Below, one piece after another: positions 3,770 to 27,356 of a DNA stretch of 64,000 nt. The first letter of the stretch is position 1, and each line of letters begins with the position of its first letter. The DNA is from Candidatus Nomurabacteria bacterium. Its GTDB lineage: Bacteria; Patescibacteriota; Minisyncoccia; Phycocordibacterales; UBA9973. The notes below the pieces were generated by a model. That model saw only the letters and a list, made by a program, of their open reading frames with translations, ran no database searches and had not been told where the DNA came from. Location of the stretch: the NCBI GenBank assembly GCA_026396065.1, contig JAPLXO010000004.1:18387-82386 (forward strand), in the 5' to 3' direction. The position numbers and the translations under genes are program-made.

Positions 3770-4396
3770 ATGTCTACAAGAAAACAATCTTTTGCAATAA
3801 ATGAATTTTATCATCTATATAATAGAGGAACTGAAAAAAGAACAATATTCTTAGAAAAGAAAGATTATGAACATTTCTTGTTTTTAATGCATATTTGTAA
3901 TACGAGCAAAAGTATTGAATTAAGGAAAATTGGTAAAAACTTTGATCGCAAGGAAACTTTAGTTAATATCGGAGCGTACTGTTTAATGCCAAATCATTTT
4001 CATATTTTAGGTTACGAAAAAATAGAAGGTGGAATTTCTAAGTACATGCTTAAACTATTAACTGCATACACAATGTATTTTAATAAAAAATACAAACGAA
4101 CAGGAAAACTATACGAAGGAGTATTTAAATCAATTCATGTAAACACGGACCGTTACTTGAAATACCTTTATTCTTATATACACCTGAACCCAGCAAAATT
4201 AGTTGATAAAAATTGGAAAGAAAACAAAAAAAGAAATACTGCTGAGTTATTAAATTATGTTTTTAATTATAAATATTCTAGCTTAGAAGAGTATTTAAAT
4301 TTAAATTTTAATATAGTAAATCAAAATCCATTTCCAAATTATTTTGGAAAACTAAATGATCATAAAAAAGAACTTTTTGAATGGTTAGAAATTTAA
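3770..4396 (+). CDS. REP-associated tyrosine transposase (RAYT), IS200-like Y1 HUH family.
   Basis: 208 aa with the HUH motif LMPNHFHIL and the catalytic Tyr region YSYIHLNPAKLV typical of RAYT/TnpA_REP (PF01797 family). Flanked by inverted REP hairpins. Confidence 0.75.
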   Translation: MSTRKQSFAINEFYHLYNRGTEKRTIFLEKKDYEHFLFLMHICNTSKSIELRKIGKNFDRKETLVNIGAYCLMPNHFHILGYEKIEGGISKYMLKLLTAYTMYFNKKYKRTGKLYEGVFKSIHVNTDRYLKYLYSYIHLNPAKLVDKNWKENKKRNTAELLNYVFNYKYSSLEEYLNLNFNIVNQNPFPNYFGKLNDHKKELFEWLEI

Positions 4397-7935: not shown

Positions 7936-8161
7936 ACAATAAATATAATTTTGCTATAATATGAACATGTTAAGAAAACAAAAAATCAACGTATTACCCG
8001 TACCCCCTACCAGCTTAATGGTGGTTGATTTTTGTGCTCAATAATAAACTCTAAAAGAATTTACTTGAACAAAAAAACCAGCTACCAAGCTGGATTTTTT
8101 GTTGTTTTGTAAATTAAATAATAGTTTAAAGATCCCCAGAAAAGGCTGGGTAGTAAAAAAG

Positions 8162-8338
8162 ATGAAAAAGATTAGAGAACAAATCATTTTCGGAGTAGCA
8201 ATCGTTATTATTATTATAATTATAATAATAGCAGTAGTAGCTACTTCACCGTACTGGATTCTAGGATTAATCCGCCTAAAATTAAAAGGTGACTTAAAGC
8301 CAGATGACTACGGTAAAAGTTGGGGTTCAGCAAGCTGA
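8162..8338 (+). CDS. Small membrane protein (hydrophobic VAIVIIIIIIIIAVVATS).
   Basis: ORF 8099..8338. The likely start is MKKIREQ at 8162. Confidence 0.35.
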   Translation: MKKIREQIIFGVAIVIIIIIIIIAVVATSPYWILGLIRLKLKGDLKPDDYGKSWGSAS

Positions 8339-8358
8339 AATTCCAACATCACATCAAA

Positions 8359-8395
8359 ATCCCTCACTAAAATATATAAAAGTGAGGGATTTTTT
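8359..8395. terminator. Rho-independent terminator (atccctcact...agtgagggat plus T-run).
   Basis: 10-bp perfect stem followed by TTTTTT. Confidence 0.6.
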
Positions 8396-8831
8396 ATTAC
8401 AAATATTCACTTGCAGAATTATTATAATCAGAATAGAATTTAATCAGGATAATTGTCGAAAGCTTTCATAGTGAAACTATTCTCGTTCCGAAAAAGAACA
8501 AGTACCACAAACGGACCGTCGTTTGTTAGGAAATAGTTTGGAGTAGCTATGATTAGGGAAGTTTTTATCGTCAGTTTCGATAATTCATAGTTCATCATGA
8601 GTTGGTCTTGGTTAGAAGTGTAAAGCAGTTAGGCCGTAAAATCGGTATTGGTAGAATACACCGCACCTGGATGGTATCTTTTGTCTATCACACTTTAATT
8701 GAACCGAAGGACACGACAATTTCTCAAAAGGTCATCATTAGCTTGATGACCTTTTTTATTTTGACTAAATAAGCTTTTTTTGATAAAATTTTAATTGATA
8801 TATATAGTACAAATCATTAAAAGAAATAACA

Positions 8832-9137
8832 ATGCGAAAAAACTCATTAGTATTAGAAGAGTTATCGACTAAAATAGGAGGTCTCTTCAAGAAAAATTCT
8901 CCGGAAAAAAATGCAGAGAGAATTGAATTAATAAAAAAATTACGGAAAGAGTGTGGACACAAGAAAGTAATAGAGACTGATATCGATGAAATCGATCACA
9001 GATTCTGTACTATTTGTGGTACACAAGAATATGGTCTCGGCCATAATGAATTAGTAAATTCAAGTAAACGGACTGTTAGTCCTGAAAAATACTTGGAAAT
9101 AAAAGAACAAAAAGAATTTCTGCTATTCAATGAATAG
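8832..9137 (+). CDS. Hypothetical protein with a CxxC...CxxC zinc-ribbon-like motif (101 aa).
   Basis: CGHKK...CTICG. Followed by the hairpin terminator at ~9140-9180. Confidence 0.45.
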   Translation: MRKNSLVLEELSTKIGGLFKKNSPEKNAERIELIKKLRKECGHKKVIETDIDEIDHRFCTICGTQEYGLGHNELVNSSKRTVSPEKYLEIKEQKEFLLFNE

Positions 9138-9223
9138 CCAACGCAATCCTTTTACCAAAAACGGGTTGCGTTTTTGGTTTTAAGGAGGTTGATTTGAAAT
9201 AAAATTAAGTATATTATTGAGTT

Positions 9224-9817
9224 ATGTTAATACCAACCGTTATAGAAAAAAGCCAATTTGGTGAGCGAGCGTATGATATTTACTCTCGTTTACTTCGTGA
9301 TCGTATTATTTTCCTTTCAGGACAAATAGACGACCACACAGCCAATATTATTATTGCTCAATTATTATTTTTAGAAAGTGAAGATCCTAAAAAAGATGTT
9401 TTCCTTTATGTGAACTCCCCTGGTGGCTCTGTCACTTCTACTATGGCCATCGTTGATACTATGAATCACATTCGCCCAGACATCGCGACATTTTGCGTAG
9501 GTATGGCAGCATCAGGTGCAGCTATTGTCCTCTCTGCTGGAAAGAAAGGCAAGAGATATATTTTGCCAAATGCTGAAGTCATGATTCACCAACCTTTAGG
9601 TGGCGTAGAAGGACAAGCCACAGATATCGCCATCTCTGCAAAACACATTTTGAAAACTCGTGATAATTTAAACAAACTCCTTGCGAAAAATACTGGCAAG
9701 ACCCTCGCTCAAATAGAAAAAGATGTCGAACGCGACTTCTACATGGATTCCGACGAAGCCAAAAAATACGGCATCATCGATGAAATAGTAACAAAGTCAA
9801 AAGCGACTCCTAAATAA
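9224..9817 (+). CDS. clpP: ATP-dependent Clp protease proteolytic subunit.
   Basis: 197 aa. Motifs [21 protein letters not shown] and the catalytic-Ser context [14 protein letters not shown], plus His in MIHQPLGG. Confidence 0.9.
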
Positions 9818-21039: not shown

Positions 21040-21078
21040 AAAAAAGAGTCTCCATTGTTGTCACAATGAACGACTCTT

Positions 21079-21609
21079 TTAGAAAAAATGTTTTAAAAAT
21101 TCTAGTCCATAGAAAAATCCGGACAAGACTACTACCGCCAAAAGATTATTTAAAAATGAACTTAACACAGCCAATATCCAAACTCGGGGAGTTCGAATTC
21201 CATTATATAAATAATATCCATTGCGATAATACAAAACTACTACCATTGGGTCCCAAAACAAAAAGAAAATTAGTAATATATATCTACCTTTGTTTGCCCA
21301 TTTACCAATAGCTTTAGTAATTGGATTTTGTTTTTCCATAGTTGTTGATTGTTCTTGTGCTTCTTTGAGTGCTTCGATTAAAAGCCAGTCGATTTTTATT
21401 ATGTCATAAACAAAAATAGTTATAACAAAAAGAGCAACAGAGCTTCCAAACAAAACTAAAATACTCCACCAAAAACTAAAATGACAAACAATATAAGGAC
21501 ACAAGATCAAACCGTATGATAAATTTATCATCCTATGTATTACAAACCCAATACCGAATATGCCAATTTTTTTAAGGTTTGACAGAACCCAGTTTTTTAA
21601 ATTTTCCAA
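21079..21609 (-). CDS. Polytopic membrane hypothetical protein (176 aa).
   Basis: Several hydrophobic helices. Confidence 0.45.
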   Translation of the reverse strand: MENLKNWVLSNLKKIGIFGIGFVIHRMINLSYGLILCPYIVCHFSFWWSILVLFGSSVALFVITIFVYDIIKIDWLLIEALKEAQEQSTTMEKQNPITKAIGKWANKGRYILLIFFLFWDPMVVVLYYRNGYYLYNGIRTPRVWILAVLSSFLNNLLAVVVLSGFFYGLEFLKHFF

Positions 21610-21752
21610 GGTTCCTCCTTTTTTAATATGTTAAATAACTCTGTAAACTATACAGCCATACTAGCACAATTTTATTTATTTAAAAGAAATATAACTTTTA
21701 TCAAAAAATAAAAAAACCGACTAGAATAAATCTGAGTCGGTTTTTTGATGCG

Positions 21753-21876
21753 TGCACTTGATGGGACTCGAACCCATACACCATGAATCTACACTACTTG
21801 TTTGGACCAAATAGAATAAACCAGGACTTACCCAGATCCTAATTCTGGAGCTCTACCAATTGTTAGCTACAAATGC
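21753..21876 (-). tRNA. Atypical tRNA-Leu(TAG)-like gene, 124 nt, with a ~54-nt insertion between the anticodon stem and the T-arm.
   Basis: By hand: acceptor GCATTTG/CAAGTGC (one G·U pair), D-arm, perfect anticodon stem CCAGA/TCTGG with loop ATTAGGA, canonical T-arm ATGGG-TTCGAGT-CCCAT. The 54 nt between them is far longer than a class II variable arm. Confidence 0.5.
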
Positions 21877-21887
21877 ATTCCATAACA

Positions 21888-22232
21888 CTACTGACGTTTT
21901 TTTAATTTAAAATACTTTACAATTTTAAAAATAAATTCATCAATAGTGAGATACTCGTGTGAAAACTTTTGTTCTTTTGAAATCTTTTTTCCTTCTTTTA
22001 CTTCTTTATCAGTGAAAATACCAAAACCAAAACCTTTTCCTCTAACAGTAGAAAAAATAATGAACTTTGCTTTTGGCTTCTTTTCCATTTCGTAAAAATA
22101 GAAATTAAGGGTTAAATTAAGTTCTTGAAGCTCATCAGGAGCCAAAAACAAACGGAACATTTTCACAACTGTTTCTATTCTTTCTTTGCCCGAAACAGTG
22201 GCAACTGGTGCGTAAGTAAAATAACTTTTCAT
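21888..22232 (-). CDS. Hypothetical protein (114 aa).
   Basis: ORF. No family recognised. Confidence 0.4.
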   Translation of the reverse strand: MKSYFTYAPVATVSGKERIETVVKMFRLFLAPDELQELNLTLNFYFYEMEKKPKAKFIIFSTVRGKGFGFGIFTDKEVKEGKKISKEQKFSHEYLTIDEFIFKIVKYFKLKKRQ

Positions 22233-22391
22233 TGTATATAATTTTTAAAGAACAGCAACATTGCTGTTCTGATATAAAGATATCAACCGTGCAATATATT
22301 TATTTTTTGATATAATGAGTATATTAGAAATATGTTGATATATAAGGCTTTTTTGTAATAAATACAAATTTGTTCGTCTAAAGTAACAAAA

Positions 22392-23180
22392 ATGAACCAA
22401 AAGATTATAGAAAAAATACAAAAAATAGGGCTTTCTGATAAGGAGGCAAGAGTATATTTATACTTACTCGCCTCGCAAGGCGCATACCCCTCAAAGGTAG
22501 CCACTGAAACACGCCTCAATAGAAGCACAGTATATAAAATACTCACTGGGCTCTCAATTAAAGGCCTCGCGACAGAGATTGAGCATGGTAAAAAAATATT
22601 TTACCAGCCAGAATCATTGAATAAATTAAAGAGGTATATGGATTATCAAATTGAACGCGCAGAAAATGCCAAAGAATCTGCGATTAAGATGATGCCTGAG
22701 CTCGAGGAACTCTTTGCAAAAGCAGATAACCCAAAAGTTTCTTTCTATAAAGGAAAAGAACAAGTTATCGAGGCATATCTACGCCATGTGCAAGTCGAAA
22801 AGCCATATAGAATGACTGCTTTTGCGAATGTTCAATACATTACAAAGTTCTTACCGGAGAAAGTATTTAATTTTTACAAGAAAGAAAAGACGCGTATTGG
22901 TATAACTGCACGAGGAGTAACCTCTTCAAGCCCTTACAGTCACCAGTTCCAAAAAGATATCTATAGCAAGGTAAAGAGAAGTATTCGTCCAGAATTACGT
23001 TTTATCCCAGAACAACTTTTCCCATTCTCAGCAGAAATGACGATGTTTGATCATAATAAAGTCTCTATAGTAAAATTCGATGAGCAAAACCCTATCGCTA
23101 TAGTCATAGAAGACAAAATGGTGCATGACATGATGAATATGTTATTTGAATTCGTCTGGAAACGAGCAGAGAAAAAATAA
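22392..23180 (+). CDS. TrmB-family transcriptional regulator (paralog 1).
   Basis: N-terminal wHTH (IGLSDKEARVYLYLLASQGAYPSKVATETRLNRSTVYKIL) typical of TrmB. Shares a C-terminal domain with the 25773 paralog (VSFYKGKEQV / VLFYEGKEGL). Confidence 0.65.
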   Translation: MNQKIIEKIQKIGLSDKEARVYLYLLASQGAYPSKVATETRLNRSTVYKILTGLSIKGLATEIEHGKKIFYQPESLNKLKRYMDYQIERAENAKESAIKMMPELEELFAKADNPKVSFYKGKEQVIEAYLRHVQVEKPYRMTAFANVQYITKFLPEKVFNFYKKEKTRIGITARGVTSSSPYSHQFQKDIYSKVKRSIRPELRFIPEQLFPFSAEMTMFDHNKVSIVKFDEQNPIAIVIEDKMVHDMMNMLFEFVWKRAEKK

Positions 23181-23195
23181 CTTATAGTGGATTTA

Positions 23196-23870
23196 TTAAA
23201 TAGTCATATGGCTTTGTTTCCATTTTGAGACATCAGCCCAGTCAGAAAATTTTTCAACTGAAGTAATAGTAATATTGTAGGCATTTTTCGGATGCTGATC
23301 AAAGAAATATCTATGTAAATCATCAGATATAAGTACTGCTTTCTTATCTAGAGTATCAATATTTAGCTTGTAAATAATTGGATTATACTCACCATTTTCA
23401 ACTATATTTTCTCTTATAAGAAATTTGTTATCAATCGTACAATCGGTGTAAATAATATTTCTATTAACAAACCCGAAACCCAAGTTACAAAAAGATATTT
23501 TTTCTAATCCAGTATCTAAGTCGTATACTTTCGTCTCACGAACAAGTGAAGTTCCAAGGTCAGCAATAATGTATTTATCATCTTGTGTTACGTAATTAAT
23601 GATCATATGATACGCATCAACTTTTTTTAATAAGATAGTTTTATTTGTATTTTTATCTAAAACTTTTACATCATGTAAAATAGAATCGTTGTTTGCATCA
23701 GCATCAACTATTTCTACTGCAAGTCTAGGGTTACCAATGTCTAATGTTTTTGGAGTAATTTTATTTATTTGAATAGCCTGATCTACCACTTTTTTACCAA
23801 AGAAATGCTGGGAAACAATTAATCCCGCAAAAACTAAAATAAGTACGATAATTACTTTTTTCATACACAT
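23196..23870 (-). CDS. Secreted or membrane-anchored hypothetical protein (224 aa).
   Basis: N-terminal signal/TM MCMKKVIIVLILVFAGLIVS. Co-directional with, and downstream of, the Cys-rich gene. Confidence 0.5.
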   Translation of the reverse strand: MCMKKVIIVLILVFAGLIVSQHFFGKKVVDQAIQINKITPKTLDIGNPRLAVEIVDADANNDSILHDVKVLDKNTNKTILLKKVDAYHMIINYVTQDDKYIIADLGTSLVRETKVYDLDTGLEKISFCNLGFGFVNRNIIYTDCTIDNKFLIRENIVENGEYNPIIYKLNIDTLDKKAVLISDDLHRYFFDQHPKNAYNITITSVEKFSDWADVSKWKQSHMTI

Positions 23871-23936
23871 ATAATACCATAGAAGTATGTGGTGAAATAA
23901 AAAACTCTTAATAAATTTATTAAGAGTTTTTTATTG

Positions 23937-25670
23937 CTATGAAACTTCTTGTTGATAGCAGGATTCACAGTAGACTATTTCTTTTCGGTCGGGGGAGTAT
24001 GAAGTTTCAAACTTTACATCACAATGATTTTCACCGTGAATATGATTTTTTAATTCACACATACAAGACCTTGGATAAAGTTTTCTCGGATTTCTTTTTG
24101 CCATACGAGCACGGTGACGACATTCGAAATCTTTGTGTGGAAGTGGAATATTCATTCGCTTATAAAAGTCGAGTTCCATTTTTGTAATACGAAAATTTTT
24201 ATCACACTCTTCACAAACCAGAATTTCATTTAAAAAATTATCATCTACGTTTTCAATACTGTTTGGCACTTCACCTTTTTTAATAGTTTCTTTACCATAG
24301 GTGCCTGTAGTTTTTTCTTGCCAAGAAAATCCACGCTTCAATGCCTCTTCTTTTGTGAGAGGGAATAAATCATGAGCCAATGTTTCGTTATAACCAAAAG
24401 GAGAAATGTCTGGAGAAAAATATTGCCCCCAGGTACCATCTTGTTTTAATTGATTTTCAATTTGTTCTTTTAATTTAAGATATTCTTCTTTTGAATATTC
24501 TTTATTTAGAATCATATTATTTCCTTTTCGAATAGCAGTGCAACCAAAAGAATTTGTCAAGTTATAGCAATTATCACAATAGTCTAAGTCAGTAGAATAG
24601 AAAACGAAAACACAATTTTTAGATCGGCTTAACTGCATTGCACCCATAATATTATAATTAAATTCGCATTTATAATAATAATTATTGCAATCCATACTAT
24701 CTGTAGGATTTTCAGAGTCGGTCATATAAGAACAATTTTTTGCATCATAAGTATCATAGAGCATTACACCTTGATGACAATTATGTAAATAATCTCCAGA
24801 GACATCATGGCATTTTGTTTGGCAAGCAAATTTTCTAACTGTCTCCTTTTTTAATTCTTCAAATTCTTTTTTGGCTTGTTCGATGTTTTCATAACTAGAA
24901 AAAATCTCTGCTTTTTTCTTTTCATATTCTTCTTTAGAATATTTTACATTAAAAATAGCATTTGAAACATTGCGTCCATTCGTGCAGAAAATACAATTGT
25001 TTGAATTGCGCATATTGTAGCAGAAGAGTAAATCACTAGATTCTTGGCATTGCTCAGAATACATACACTTGAAACACTTTCGGCTATCGATAGTCTCATA
25101 GCAAAGCTCTGATTCGTGTAAAAATGCACAGTCCACACAGCCTTTATTTCTCTGTAACAATCTTCCATACAAACAATCTTCATTGTAATCCGCGGCGAAA
25201 ATTAAATAACAATCTTTATTTTCTGCAGAGCCATTTGTATAATCACTGCGGACATTGTTGTGAATCATAATGCCTAGGCGTGGTGTTTCTTTTACTAAAT
25301 CATTAAACTGTTCAAAAAAAGATTTGTTTAAATCATAATTTTTTCCAAAACTTTTTGGATCCCAATTGTCACTCCACCAACATTCGTAACAATATACATT
25401 GTATGGAGACTCTGGCGCATAAACAGAAATAAAATCTTTTTCACAAAGACCACAGGGACGTTTATAAAAAGTCCTTTCATTACGAAAAACCAATCGCCTT
25501 GCCATACGGCAATCAGGGCAGTAGAGAGGTGGCGCAGTTTTCACTTGCTCATAAAAAGTGAGGTCTGCATCTCGTATTTCAAATTCCTTTTCACAACTTT
25601 TACAATTTTTTATAATCATAATTACTAAAGTATATACTAATGCACTATATTTGTCAAGGATATTCGTCAT
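23937..25670 (-). CDS. Cysteine-rich cytoplasmic protein (577 aa, ~55 Cys) with duplicated N- and C-terminal zinc-ribbon modules.
   Basis: N-terminal CKSCEKEFEI...FYEQV...YCPDCR and C-terminal CEECDKNFRI...FYKRMN...CRHR repeat the same pattern. The interior holds dozens of CxxC / NCxFC units. No signal peptide. Confidence 0.6.
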   Translation of the reverse strand: MTNILDKYSALVYTLVIMIIKNCKSCEKEFEIRDADLTFYEQVKTAPPLYCPDCRMARRLVFRNERTFYKRPCGLCEKDFISVYAPESPYNVYCYECWWSDNWDPKSFGKNYDLNKSFFEQFNDLVKETPRLGIMIHNNVRSDYTNGSAENKDCYLIFAADYNEDCLYGRLLQRNKGCVDCAFLHESELCYETIDSRKCFKCMYSEQCQESSDLLFCYNMRNSNNCIFCTNGRNVSNAIFNVKYSKEEYEKKKAEIFSSYENIEQAKKEFEELKKETVRKFACQTKCHDVSGDYLHNCHQGVMLYDTYDAKNCSYMTDSENPTDSMDCNNYYYKCEFNYNIMGAMQLSRSKNCVFVFYSTDLDYCDNCYNLTNSFGCTAIRKGNNMILNKEYSKEEYLKLKEQIENQLKQDGTWGQYFSPDISPFGYNETLAHDLFPLTKEEALKRGFSWQEKTTGTYGKETIKKGEVPNSIENVDDNFLNEILVCEECDKNFRITKMELDFYKRMNIPLPHKDFECRHRARMAKRNPRKLYPRSCMCELKNHIHGENHCDVKFETSYSPDRKEIVYCESCYQQEVS

Positions 25671-25772
25671 AAAGTATCAGAACAAGCTATATATATTAAG
25701 GTATAATAGAAGTATTAAAAATAGTGTGGGATGAGCTTGACACAGATATAGCAAACAATATATACTTAAAAA

Positions 25773-26555
25773 GTGAAAAAGGAATTGTCCCCAATTGAAA
25801 AACAGCTCAAAATAATAGGTCTTTCAGAAAACGAAATCGTGATGTATGTCGCACTCCTTGAACTCGGAAAAGGAACAGTTTCACAAATATCTCGAAAAGC
25901 ATTTTTAAATAGAACGACAGGCTATGATGTTTTGGATAGATTAGTATCTAAAAATCTTATCAGTATTTCTGGTAAAGAACCGAAACAAGAATATGTAGCG
26001 GAATCTCCAGACAATGTCGGAAAATTAATTACCGAAGAACTCGAAAGAAGGCAAAGTGAATTAAACGAAGCAAAAAAAATAATTCCTGAATTAAAATCCA
26101 TTCATAATGTAGTAAACAGACCAAAAGTTTTATTTTACGAAGGAAAGGAAGGTTTGAAACAAGTATATGAAGATACATTAACTTCGACAGAACCAATTCG
26201 AGCATATGCAAGTGTAGAAAATATGCACGCAGGATTACCTGGATATTTCCCTGAATACTATAAACGCCGAGCAAAAAAAGGAATCGCTATTCGTGCTGTG
26301 GTGCCAAATAGTGAAACGGGAAGGGAAAGAAAAATTTTCGACAAGGCAGAAATGCGTGAGACAGCACTCGTGCCGACAGATATGTGCAATTTTATTCCTG
26401 AAATAAATATCTACGATAACAAAGTAATGATCGCATCGTGGCGAGAAAAGCTCGGCATCATTATTGAATCAGCGGAAATTGCCGATGCGATGAAAAAAAT
26501 ATATGAACTCGCTTGGGCAGAGGCAAAGAGATTAGACTCTGAAATTAAAAATTAA
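25773..26555 (+). CDS. TrmB-family transcriptional regulator (paralog 2).
   Basis: wHTH IIGLSENEIVMYVALLELGKGTVSQISRKAFLNRTTGYDVLDRL. GTG start. Confidence 0.65.
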   Translation: MKKELSPIEKQLKIIGLSENEIVMYVALLELGKGTVSQISRKAFLNRTTGYDVLDRLVSKNLISISGKEPKQEYVAESPDNVGKLITEELERRQSELNEAKKIIPELKSIHNVVNRPKVLFYEGKEGLKQVYEDTLTSTEPIRAYASVENMHAGLPGYFPEYYKRRAKKGIAIRAVVPNSETGRERKIFDKAEMRETALVPTDMCNFIPEINIYDNKVMIASWREKLGIIIESAEIADAMKKIYELAWAEAKRLDSEIKN

Positions 26556-26579
26556 TTAATTTATGCTAATATAAAAAAT

Positions 26580-27356
26580 ATGAAAATTGGTATATTTGAT
26601 TCAGGGGTAGGGGGGTTATTGATAGCGAAATCTATTCGTAAGACTCTACCACAATATGACTATGTATATTTAGGGGACACAAAGCGCGTACCATATGGCA
26701 ACCGAAGCCATGAAACGATTTTGGAATTCACTCGTGAAGCTGTGAAATACCTTTTTGAAAAAGAAAATTGCGGGTTGATAATAATAGCTTGCAATACGGC
26801 ATCAGCTCAAGCTTTGCACGAATTGCAAATTGAATATAAAAACAAAAAAATTCTCGGTGTAATAATTCCAGTAGCAGAAGAATCTATAAATTTTAAAAAA
26901 ATTGGTATCCTCGCTACTTCAGCTACAGTATCTTCAAACACTTTCCCTAGAGAAATAAAAGAAGTAAATAAAAATGCTAAAGTTTTTCAAAATCCTGCAC
27001 CAATGCTAGTACCACTAGCTGAAAGTGGAGAAAATAAAAATGCTTTACCTTTTATTAAGGAATATTTAAAACCTCTTTTAGCAAAAAAAATAGATGCACT
27101 TATTTTGGGATGCACGCATTACCCTATATATAAAAAAGAAATAAAAAAAATATTACCAAAGAATATTAAAATAATTTCTCAAGACGAAATAATCCCAAAA
27201 AAATTAAAAAACTATTTACAAAGACATACGGAAGTAGAAAACAAACTTTCTAAAAATGGAAAAGCAAAAATTCTTGTGACGGACAAAACAAAAAATATAG
27301 AATTTCTCGCCCATAAATGGTTTGGCAAAGAAAGCCTGAGTTTAATCGAAATTTAG
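26580..27356 (+). CDS. murI: Glutamate racemase.
   Basis: 258 aa. IGIFDSGVGGL, YLGDTKRVPYG, IACNTASA and GCTHYP motifs. Confidence 0.85.
   Translation: MKIGIFDSGVGGLLIAKSIRKTLPQYDYVYLGDTKRVPYGNRSHETILEFTREAVKYLFEKENCGLIIIACNTASAQALHELQIEYKNKKILGVIIPVAEESINFKKIGILATSATVSSNTFPREIKEVNKNAKVFQNPAPMLVPLAESGENKNALPFIKEYLKPLLAKKIDALILGCTHYPIYKKEIKKILPKNIKIISQDEIIPKKLKNYLQRHTEVENKLSKNGKAKILVTDKTKNIEFLAHKWFGKESLSLIEI

Follow-up and report, generated by a model that had tools for sequence, protein, structure and literature searches.

A probable tRNA-derived, five-helix RNA beside a small conserved protein gene in an accessory module of a Candidatus Nomurabacteria genome

The 64,000 nt stretch of Candidatus Nomurabacteria DNA analysed here (the window: contig JAPLXO010000004.1 of assembly GCA_026396065.1, positions 18,387 to 82,386 of the forward strand) carries on its minus strand a gene for an RNA shaped like a transfer RNA (tRNA), preceded by an ORF (open reading frame) for a conserved protein of 114 aa. 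Together the two make up a module of about 585 bp, which is absent from close relatives and lies beside a divergently transcribed gene for a TrmB-type regulator. The initial annotation of the RNA gene had described a tRNA-Leu(TAG)-like gene of 124 nt with a stretch of about 54 nt inserted between its anticodon arm and its T arm. A single match to the Rfam tRNA model RF00005 spans exactly the annotated positions, with the anticodon UAG and on the minus strand, which had been left unstated, and the inserted stretch is exactly 54 nt long. At roughly even odds (a probability of about 0.5), we read the locus as encoding an RNA of tRNA descent with five helices, conserved for some role other than decoding, and paired with the small protein in an accessory module. 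The RNA gene and its parts are as follows.

21753-21876, minus strand: gene for a tRNA-shaped RNA of 124 nt, a five-helix cloverleaf (RF00005 match, minimum-energy fold and covariance model R1).
21850-21867, minus strand: D arm, with the stem GCUA/GAGC containing an A.G mismatch and the loop ACAAUUGGUA containing G18G19 (RF00005 match and fold).
21832-21848, minus strand: anticodon-like arm, with the 5 bp stem CCAGA/UCUGG and the loop AUUAGGA (RF00005 match and fold).
21778-21831, minus strand: 54 nt insert in the variable position, between the anticodon stem and the T stem.
21781-21825, minus strand: the hairpin proper of the insert (minimum-energy fold).
About 21793-21813, minus strand: the invariant apex of this extra arm, including the loop GUCCAAA (alignment with the orthologue).
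21761-21777, minus strand: T arm, AUGGG/UUCGAGU/CCCAU (RF00005 match).

The RF00005 match scores 41.8 bits, against a gathering score of 29, with an E-value of 1.8e-5 over the whole window and of 8.7e-8 in a local scan; the score under covariance model R1 is 137.6 bits. Read from 5′ to 3′, the 5′ half runs GCAUUUG-UA-GCUA-ACAAUUGGUA-GAGC-U-CCAGA-AUUAGGA-UCUGG, and the 3′ half consists of the 54 nt insert followed by AUGGG-UUCGAGU-CCCAU-CAAGUGC-A. The halves close a 7 bp acceptor stem with one G-U pair; U8 and A14 are present, the discriminator is A73 (at 21753) and the terminal CCA is not encoded. All of the tRNA invariants are in place, namely G18G19, the T54-Psi55-C56 T loop and U33, the last within an anticodon loop that also carries the anticodon UAG (21839-21841) and G37. 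The sequence AAUUGGUAGA in the D loop is presumably as in bacterial tRNA-Leu, and A73 is the discriminator of class II tRNA-Leu; the orthologue described below has U at this position. With the insert removed, however, the core shows no special similarity to tRNA-Leu, its identity to Arg, Ile, Lys and Asp tRNAs being, as to Leu tRNAs, about 70% in a comparison that included no tRNA-Leu from a close relative. Neither ARAGORN nor Rfam finds a second tRNA-Leu in the window, in agreement with the initial annotation; the four other tRNAs are two for Gly and one each for Pro and Arg.

The proposal that the two halves belong to one tRNA had been expected to fail if tRNA predictors called two elements or none, and here the programs disagreed. 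Infernal, with RF00005, calls one element rather than two; ARAGORN leaves the gene at 21753-21876 uncalled, both at default settings and with its intron options. As ARAGORN calls a tRNA-Leu(tag) from in silico variants in which the hairpin is deleted or trimmed to 5 bp, its miss reflects a length limit and not a defect in the cloverleaf. The proposed comparison with orthologous genes favours a single RNA, since the two halves also belong together at the orthologous locus.

The initial annotation had seen no strong single hairpin in the inserted stretch, and this we did not find to be so. In the minimum-energy folds of the insert alone and of the whole RNA, it forms one long, imperfect hairpin of 17 pairs with the 7 nt loop GUCCAAA, interrupted by three single-nucleotide bulges and one U.U mismatch, and the same hairpin is kept in the orthologue. 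The folding energy of the insert is -12.3 kcal/mol, against -6.9 +/- 2.3 kcal/mol for dinucleotide shuffles (z -2.3), with four of 200 shuffles folding equally well. For the full-length RNA, the minimum-energy structure is a cloverleaf with five arms (-34.4 kcal/mol, z -2.1). Class II variable arms reach about 20-odd nt. The variable region of 54 nt is outside the ranges of both tRNA classes, which are given as 4-5 nt for class I and as arms ‘greater than 10 nucleotides’ for class II (PMC7609411). Of the options raised initially, an extended variable arm is structurally the closest, as the insert occupies the variable position as a helix whose pairing is preserved through substitutions in the orthologue.

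The orthologue on which much of the argument turns is a 123 nt RNA at positions 3787-3909 of a locus that we call L129, with an identical copy in a further locus, L130; the family therefore comprises two distinct RNA sequences. It sits 3′ of a homologous ORF, in the same position as the window RNA, and aligns with the latter from end to end, yet it has no RF00005 match at the gathering threshold or at E <= 10. Folded independently, it adopts the same five helices at -36.9 kcal/mol. In the two-sequence alignment, modelled with 37 shared pairs, standard pairs form in 95.9% of the pair cells, compared with 31-47% when the 3′ partners are slid by one to three columns, and the orthologue by itself forms 36 of the 37 modelled pairs. 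Twelve pairs vary between the two sequences: two are changed on both sides (acceptor 3-70 from A-U to C-G, and T stem 49-65 from A-U to G-C), seven differ on one side yet still pair, and in three a single cell is unpaired, among them A13.G22 of the window RNA, which is C-G in L129. If a random substitution preserves pairing about one time in three, keeping at least nine of the 12 variable pairs has a probability of about 0.004. The D stem of the orthologue is perfect (GCUC/GAGC, 4 bp) and of what we take to be the class I tRNA type, and the anticodon stem does not differ at all between the two RNAs. The extra arm is identical at 45 of 55 positions, and its apex, UAUUUG-GUCCAAA-CAAGUAGU, is unchanged, with none of the seven columns of the apical loop differing.

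The loops that define a tRNA show the opposite pattern. The D loop ACAAUUGGUA is replaced by AAAAUAUCA, without GG; the anticodon loop AUUAGGA is replaced by CAAUCAA, which differs in six of seven columns and has neither U33 nor UAG; and the T loop UUCGAGU is replaced by UAAAAU, without T-Psi-C. Taken together, these three loops differ in 15 of 24 columns, against 19 of 101 in the rest of the RNA (Fisher p = 5e-5), and they have diverged further than the third codon positions (30/115, p = 0.0013) or the four-fold sites (5/31, p = 0.0006) of the adjoining ORF. Most of the loop changes in L129 are from G/C to A/T, and AT-biased drift under relaxed constraint could partly explain them. Drift by itself is not sufficient, because the same RNA has kept 36 of 37 pairs. 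The helices and the extra arm are held whilst the loops are replaced; comparison of the two sequences therefore indicates that across this family selection acts on the helices and the arm, and not on the tRNA loops. To find the helices and arm kept and the tRNA-defining loops replaced is an unusual evolutionary pattern between two sequences.

The elements that flank the RNA gene, and the island in which the module lies, are as follows.

21708-21749, minus strand: terminator-like hairpin, comprising an A-tract, CCGACU...AGUCGG and a U-run (read from the sequence; inverted repeat I15).
21888-22232, minus strand: ORF of 114 aa encoding a conserved small protein (codon-position pattern and homologues).
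22392-23180, plus strand: TrmB-family winged-helix regulator of 262 aa, divergent from the ORF (PF01978, E 3e-13).
21045-26560, no strand assigned: strain-variable island containing the module, downstream of the gene for a CCA-adding enzyme (synteny with relatives).

The 114-aa protein is identical to MCX6757451.1 (locus tag NTZ44_01035), encoded on a contig of 124.5 kb in a Candidatus Nomurabacteria MAG (metagenome-assembled genome). The differences between the ORF and its L129 homologue fall at codon positions 1, 2 and 3 in the ratio 12/7/30, and because they concentrate at third positions the ORF is judged to be genuinely coding. Its close homologues are P0121 (97% identity, from sample ERZ1426853) and P0122 (85%, in both L129 and L130), and an exhaustive profile search found three more distant ones (P0168-P0170; 41-47% identity, 116-128 aa), of which P0169 is present on seven contigs, the longest 98 kb, in JGI/IMG and Logan. 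Twenty-four positions are invariant across the family, and the AlphaFold model is confident, with a predicted local distance difference test score (pLDDT) of 90.7. On these sequence comparisons, the protein is real and conserved. The RNA begins 12 nt beyond the stop codon of the ORF in the window, and 11-12 nt beyond it over both copies, on the same strand. A hairpin with a U-run starts within about 10 nt of its 3′ end, and the L129 RNA has a different hairpin and U-run at the equivalent place; the automatic terminator scan omitted the hairpin at 21708-21749 because of its 12 nt loop.

The host is bacterial, because the window encodes a sigma-70 factor and a bacterial CCA-adding enzyme, although both score below curated cut-offs; the homologues of the latter belong to Candidatus Nomurabacteria, Pacebacteria or Patescibacteria. 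A cassette made up of the TrmB gene, the ORF and either the RNA or a gap of its size is found in three independent assemblies. The ORF and the divergent 262-aa TrmB gene are adjacent in all three (the window, L129/L130 and ERZ1426853), and the other neighbours differ: a Fic protein lies next to the cassette in L129, and on the ERZ1426853 contig it has as a neighbour a ParE/YafQ toxin gene, next to a small gene that presumably encodes the antitoxin. The block that the window shares with L129 corresponds to window positions 21706-23180, at 80% identity, and consists of the terminator, the RNA, the ORF, the intergenic region and the TrmB gene. By contrast, five loci with TrmB homologues (L131-L135, 72-87% identity) share only 22290-23180, and there the regulator faces a different gene encoding 250-320 aa, with no trace of the ORF or the RNA beside it. 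Because these loci carry neither, the ORF and the RNA are a unit that is gained or lost next to the TrmB gene. Divergence from L129 at four-fold sites is 0.16 for the ORF (L129 3431-3775) and 0.61 for the TrmB gene (L129 2483-3271), which suggests that exchange of the module between lineages was more recent than that of its TrmB neighbour.

The wider setting is also variable. In the closest relative, L004, whose CCA-adding enzyme shares 97% identity, hardly any sequence separates the CCA gene from the Asp/Glu racemase gene found at window position 26580, and because L004 thus lacks the intervening DNA we regard approximately 21045-26560 as a strain-variable island. The spot is flanked by the CCA-adding enzyme gene on one side and by conserved Asp/Glu racemase or Exo_endo_phos genes on the other. 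Its cargo differs among relatives (L002, L003, L005/L006 and L133/L134), and in L133 it holds the same TrmB regulator without the module of ORF and RNA. Syntenic relatives keep the upstream cluster of tRNA-Gly, tRNA-Arg and tRNA-Pro together with the CCA-enzyme gene, and none of them has a tRNA downstream of the latter. In the window the island contains two TrmB-family regulators, the remaining ORFs being unannotatable, and none of the island ORFs matches an integrase, a phage protein or a defence model. One of these ORFs, a 577-aa protein (23937-25670) beside the second TrmB paralogue (25773-26555), gives only a sub-threshold hint of a treble-clef zinc finger and no family match; L002 encodes a protein of equal length at the corresponding place beyond its CCA-adding enzyme gene, and one of 564 aa lies on the ERZ1426853 cassette contig. 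A role in codon supply was rejected, as CUA makes up 5% of Leu codons in island genes and 13% in core genes.

Several candidate boundaries and partners were considered and set aside. An inverted repeat matching at 16 of 17 positions (17 nt; 21696-21712 and 22299-22315) brackets the module, and none of 300 shuffles reaches this. Its arms were rejected as terminal inverted repeats and are probably not transposon ends, because the right arm is TrmB-promoter sequence that also occurs in module-less relatives and L129 lacks the left arm. The motif ATCAAAAAA occurs twice, just 3′ of the RNA and in the intergenic region. Duplication of a tRNA 3′ end at an attachment (att) site was rejected, no such repeat having been found, and there are no tandem repeats in or near the RNA. 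Pairing of the apical loop with a target inside the module was likewise rejected, as no site complementary to GUCCAAA occurs in the sense transcripts of the module. On its 7 bp stem this invariant loop resembles an anticodon loop (U in second position, then CCA, then purines), and presumably that of tRNA-Trp, CUCCAAA. The likeness may mark a ‘pseudo-anticodon’ or be coincidental. The terminator scan also reported a weak hairpin with a U-rich run inside the RNA (CUGGG-UAAGU-CCUGG, 21821-21835, minus strand), less clear in L129, which would compete with the anticodon stem and may represent an alternative fold or an attenuation point.

Our data are consistent with a model in which the RNA would be co-transcribed with the ORF and would end at the downstream hairpin and U-run. 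Co-transcription is suggested because the gap is 12 nt, no separate promoter-like site was recognised and a terminator-like hairpin lies directly 3′ in both copies. RNase P would then free the 5′ end of the RNA, since the acceptor and T stems form a tRNA-like stack. The window copy may go on to be processed, given CCA and even leucylated like a tRNA, although this is not what the family conserves; family-wide selection would act on the helical scaffold and the extra arm rather than on decoding. The extra arm would most probably serve as a binding handle, and the 114-aa protein encoded beside it would be the obvious candidate partner. In this form the locus points to a tRNA recruited to a new, probably protein-linked role in bacteria of the candidate phyla radiation (CPR).

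Several points weigh against this interpretation. Apart from the arm, the window copy is flawless as a tRNA, as a working tRNA-Leu would look. Covariation statistics from two distinct RNA sequences, of an RNA known only as sequence, are weak: a column-shuffle control is uninformative with two rows and was not relied upon, and all of the compensatory changes could lie on the window branch, as two copies give no polarity. Relaxed constraint could, as noted, account for part of the loop divergence. The 114-aa protein has no family or fold match and no PADLOC model match; it is its linkage to the RNA gene that suggests binding. The RNA gene also lacks a recognisable promoter-like site of its own at the locus.

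The alternative that takes the window copy at face value is a working accessory tRNA-Leu(UAG), its variable arm three times the normal length, that is charged by leucyl-tRNA synthetase (LeuRS) and decodes CUN codons, with the L129 copy as a derived, non-decoding offshoot. To our knowledge, bacterial LeuRS reads neither the anticodon nor the variable arm. U8, A14, G18G19, U33, G37, UUCGAGU and A73 are all present, the trimmed-arm gene is called tRNA-Leu(tag) by ARAGORN, and the genome encodes a CCA-adding enzyme. Engineered tRNAs speak on both sides: those with a hairpin aptamer on the variable arm stayed translationally active, whereas V-Spinach tRNAs with large inserts were marginally active (PMC7590224). 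We nevertheless consider this alternative unlikely. The orthologue loses the anticodon, U33, G18G19 and the T loop whilst keeping the helices and the arm, and its D stem is of the type generally known from class I tRNAs; the core without the insert has no particular affinity to tRNA-Leu; island genes are not rich in CUA; and no other tRNA-Leu with a variable region above approximately 31 nt was found among the pattern-scan matches listed. Furthermore, because the gene is absent from close relatives, the RNA cannot be an essential reader of CUA. The close juxtaposition with the ORF raises instead a mascRNA-like, cis-acting 3′ element of the ORF mRNA (messenger RNA), recruiting RNase P or blocking 3′ exonucleases and so defining or stabilising the 3′ end of that mRNA, with the released RNA functionless. 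The distance of 11-12 nt from the stop codon on the same strand in both copies, the terminator-like hairpin directly after the RNA and the lack of a separate promoter all agree with this proposal, as does the finding that helices matter and loops do not, which is expected of a processing or stability structure. It would leave unexplained the kept 17 bp fifth arm with its invariant apex of about 20 nt, and an acceptor/T minihelix or the terminator alone would suffice for such a role; we regard it as rather improbable.

The three remaining alternatives are each contradicted by the orthologue. A decaying tRNA pseudogene carrying a functionless junk insertion, corresponding to the inactivated tRNA of the initial annotation, would be at home in an accessory island, would go uncalled by ARAGORN, and would be expected to lose its tRNA loops, mostly by G/C to A/T changes, as the orthologue has. 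Simple decay is unsupported, however, because neutral decay would not leave 36 of 37 pairs forming, two of them changed on both sides, in an RNA with 63% of its tRNA-loop columns changed. The insert, moreover, is conserved like the stems, has an invariant apex and is not a dispersed element, because no second copy of it occurs in the window or in the relatives' loci; a pseudogene is thus an explanation of low probability. An intron of 54 nt removed from a pre-tRNA, the small non-canonical intron of the initial annotation, has in its favour that the exon parts alone make a tRNA of normal length that ARAGORN accepts, and we think it very improbable nonetheless. The host is bacterial, and we know of no tRNA splicing endonuclease in bacteria; 54 nt is far below the size of a self-splicing intron, and no Rfam intron family matches at its gathering threshold or at E <= 10. 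In what is a weak test, the predicted folds show a plain hairpin without a bulge-helix-bulge at the junctions, and all that ARAGORN returns in its relaxed intron mode is another, poor solution, Tyr(ata), whose anticodon stem is weak. The insert is the best-conserved part of the RNA and is kept in an orthologue whose ‘exons’ no longer form a tRNA. Finally, chimeras of tRNA fragments do occur in public metagenome-assembled genomes (MAGs), as in L043, with a duplicated 3′ half, and L046, with a fused pair. That the window gene is an assembly chimera of this kind is hardly credible, given that the same architecture recurs in an independent assembly at 20% sequence divergence, that the cassette gene order is also found in a third sample, and that the halves pair with each other in both copies.

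The five-helix RNA, which we favour as non-decoding, has partial counterparts among several classes of molecule. It shares with class II tRNAs (Leu, Ser, bacterial Tyr and Sec) a 7/5 cloverleaf and a helical arm between the anticodon and T stems, and its A73 and UAG anticodon fit tRNA-Leu. It differs from them in the size of the variable region (54 nt, about 17 bp), in the 4 bp, class I type D stem of the orthologue, and in that the anticodon, D and T loops are unconserved within the RNA family. Phage T4 stable RNAs ‘species 1 and 2’ and the staphylococcal cell-wall tRNA-Gly are tRNA-like or tRNA-derived molecules, encoded in accessory DNA or used off the ribosome, with non-canonical D or T loops; we mention them as leads only. 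Type III toxin-antitoxin systems offer no parallel, as there is no tandem repeat array and the ORF has no PADLOC match. The ARAGORN search found no transfer-messenger RNA (tmRNA), and Rfam gave no tmRNA match at gathering or E <= 10 thresholds.

The nearest analogue in shape is engineered. Mukai 2020 placed hairpin aptamers at the tip of the variable arm as protein-binding handles, with the tRNA body kept and the molecules translationally active; reported only marginal activity for V-Spinach tRNAs with large inserts; and explored a ‘pseudo-anticodon’ arm in the variable position (PMC7590224). The hairpin in the variable position is common to these molecules and the window RNA; they are synthetic and built on a 9/3 allo-tRNA chassis, whereas the window RNA is natural and has a 7/5 body, and protein binding by it is putative. 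In mode of working, the nearest analogue is the YrlA-type Y RNA (Chen et al. 2014, PMC4201824), which has a tRNA-mimicking module and whose gene adjoins that of its partner protein; like it, the window RNA is a tRNA-like non-coding RNA adjoining a protein gene. The M. smegmatis YrlA is cleaved by RNase P and has CCA added (PMC4201824). YrlA differs in that its two termini pair into a long stem that binds Ro, in place of the complete five-armed cloverleaf of the window RNA. No Ro60/Rsr (TROVE) gene lies among the neighbours of the window RNA, and the Rfam Y_RNA model does not match the RNA, its sole match, of 13.7 bits, being at chance level and mostly over the L129 terminator region; by every test of membership, the window RNA falls outside the YrlA class. 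The allo-tRNAs and selC* tRNAs likewise have non-canonical shapes and long variable arms and were described from metagenomic data only (Mukai et al. 2017, PMC5389517); they differ in having 8/4 or 9/3 acceptor/T stems and in keeping their decoding loops, whereas the window RNA is 7/5 with a much longer arm.

A bolder and rather doubtful extension is that of a natural ‘tagged tRNA’ family: five-armed RNAs on small mobile CPR modules, in which the fifth arm would dock the 114-aa protein and the loops would be under no constraint, with some members, such as the window copy, charged as tRNA-Leu and others serving as pure scaffolds. If this were so, such RNAs could divert or sequester aminoacyl-tRNA for a non-ribosomal purpose, or act as decoys or sensors for tRNA-targeting toxins in islands rich in toxin-antitoxin systems. 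More modestly, if the RNA is real and stable, its variable arm is roughly two to three times the longest known to us in a tRNA-shaped molecule, and it would be a natural counterpart of the synthetic aptamer-tagged tRNAs. The accessory biology of CPR bacteria is almost unexplored, and the locus also carries a warning for annotation: ARAGORN misses such genes and Infernal calls them plain tRNAs, so that the window copy would be labelled tRNA-Leu and the orthologue would receive no label at all.

The architecture was also sought beyond the locus. The exact pattern of the window D arm and anticodon arm has no match in 185,579 species genomes. A broader pattern, describing tRNA-Leu that reads CUN codons and has 31-61 nt in its variable region, gave at least 120 stretches, and four of the 119 matches listed pass a crude cloverleaf filter; none of those listed is a true tRNA-Leu with so long an arm, the rejected candidates being a tandem-duplicated 3′ half (L043) and chance motifs upstream of ordinary tRNAs. 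The architecture pattern gave one match each in viral and metagenome contigs, both rejected as chance, namely L127, in a phage tRNA array, and L128, which is not an Rfam tRNA. The invariant arm apex and the anticodon-stem junction have no match in viral contigs, and neither the island, the module DNA nor the ORF protein has a match in phage and plasmid collections. Under covariance model R1 ordinary tRNAs reach 20-31 bits, against 138-141 bits for the three known copies, and the model found nothing beyond those three copies in approximately 200 kb of related loci. Permissive Rfam scans (E <= 10) gave no alternative family for the RNA, whether Y RNA, tmRNA or intron, and the literature searched held no report of such an RNA in CPR bacteria.

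Several of the loci recovered along the way deserve mention in their own right. In L003, a bAvd gene and a reverse transcriptase gene (8134-9501), the signature of a diversity-generating retroelement, are followed by a RelB/ParE-YafQ pair, a few kb from the syntenic region. A tRNA-like gene at L128 1620-1720 (GCUCAGUUGGUAGAGC ... GGGUUCGAAUCCC), below the Rfam gathering threshold, carries roughly 50 additional nt beyond the region of the anticodon loop; it may be a tRNA of eukaryotic type with an intron, and is unrelated to the window RNA. In the Betaproteobacteria MAG locus L043 (5939-6024, minus strand), the T arm and the 3′ acceptor strand of a tRNA-Leu(CAG) are duplicated, with ...GGGGGUUCGAGUCCCUUCCUGGGCACC occurring twice, which is either an assembly artefact or real. 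Lastly, at approximately 257-354 on the minus strand of L046 (Parcubacteria), a tRNA-Leu(GAG) that is complete from its 5′ end to its variable arm runs into the D arm to 3′ end of a second tRNA, apparently a chimeric or fused gene, again in a CPR genome.

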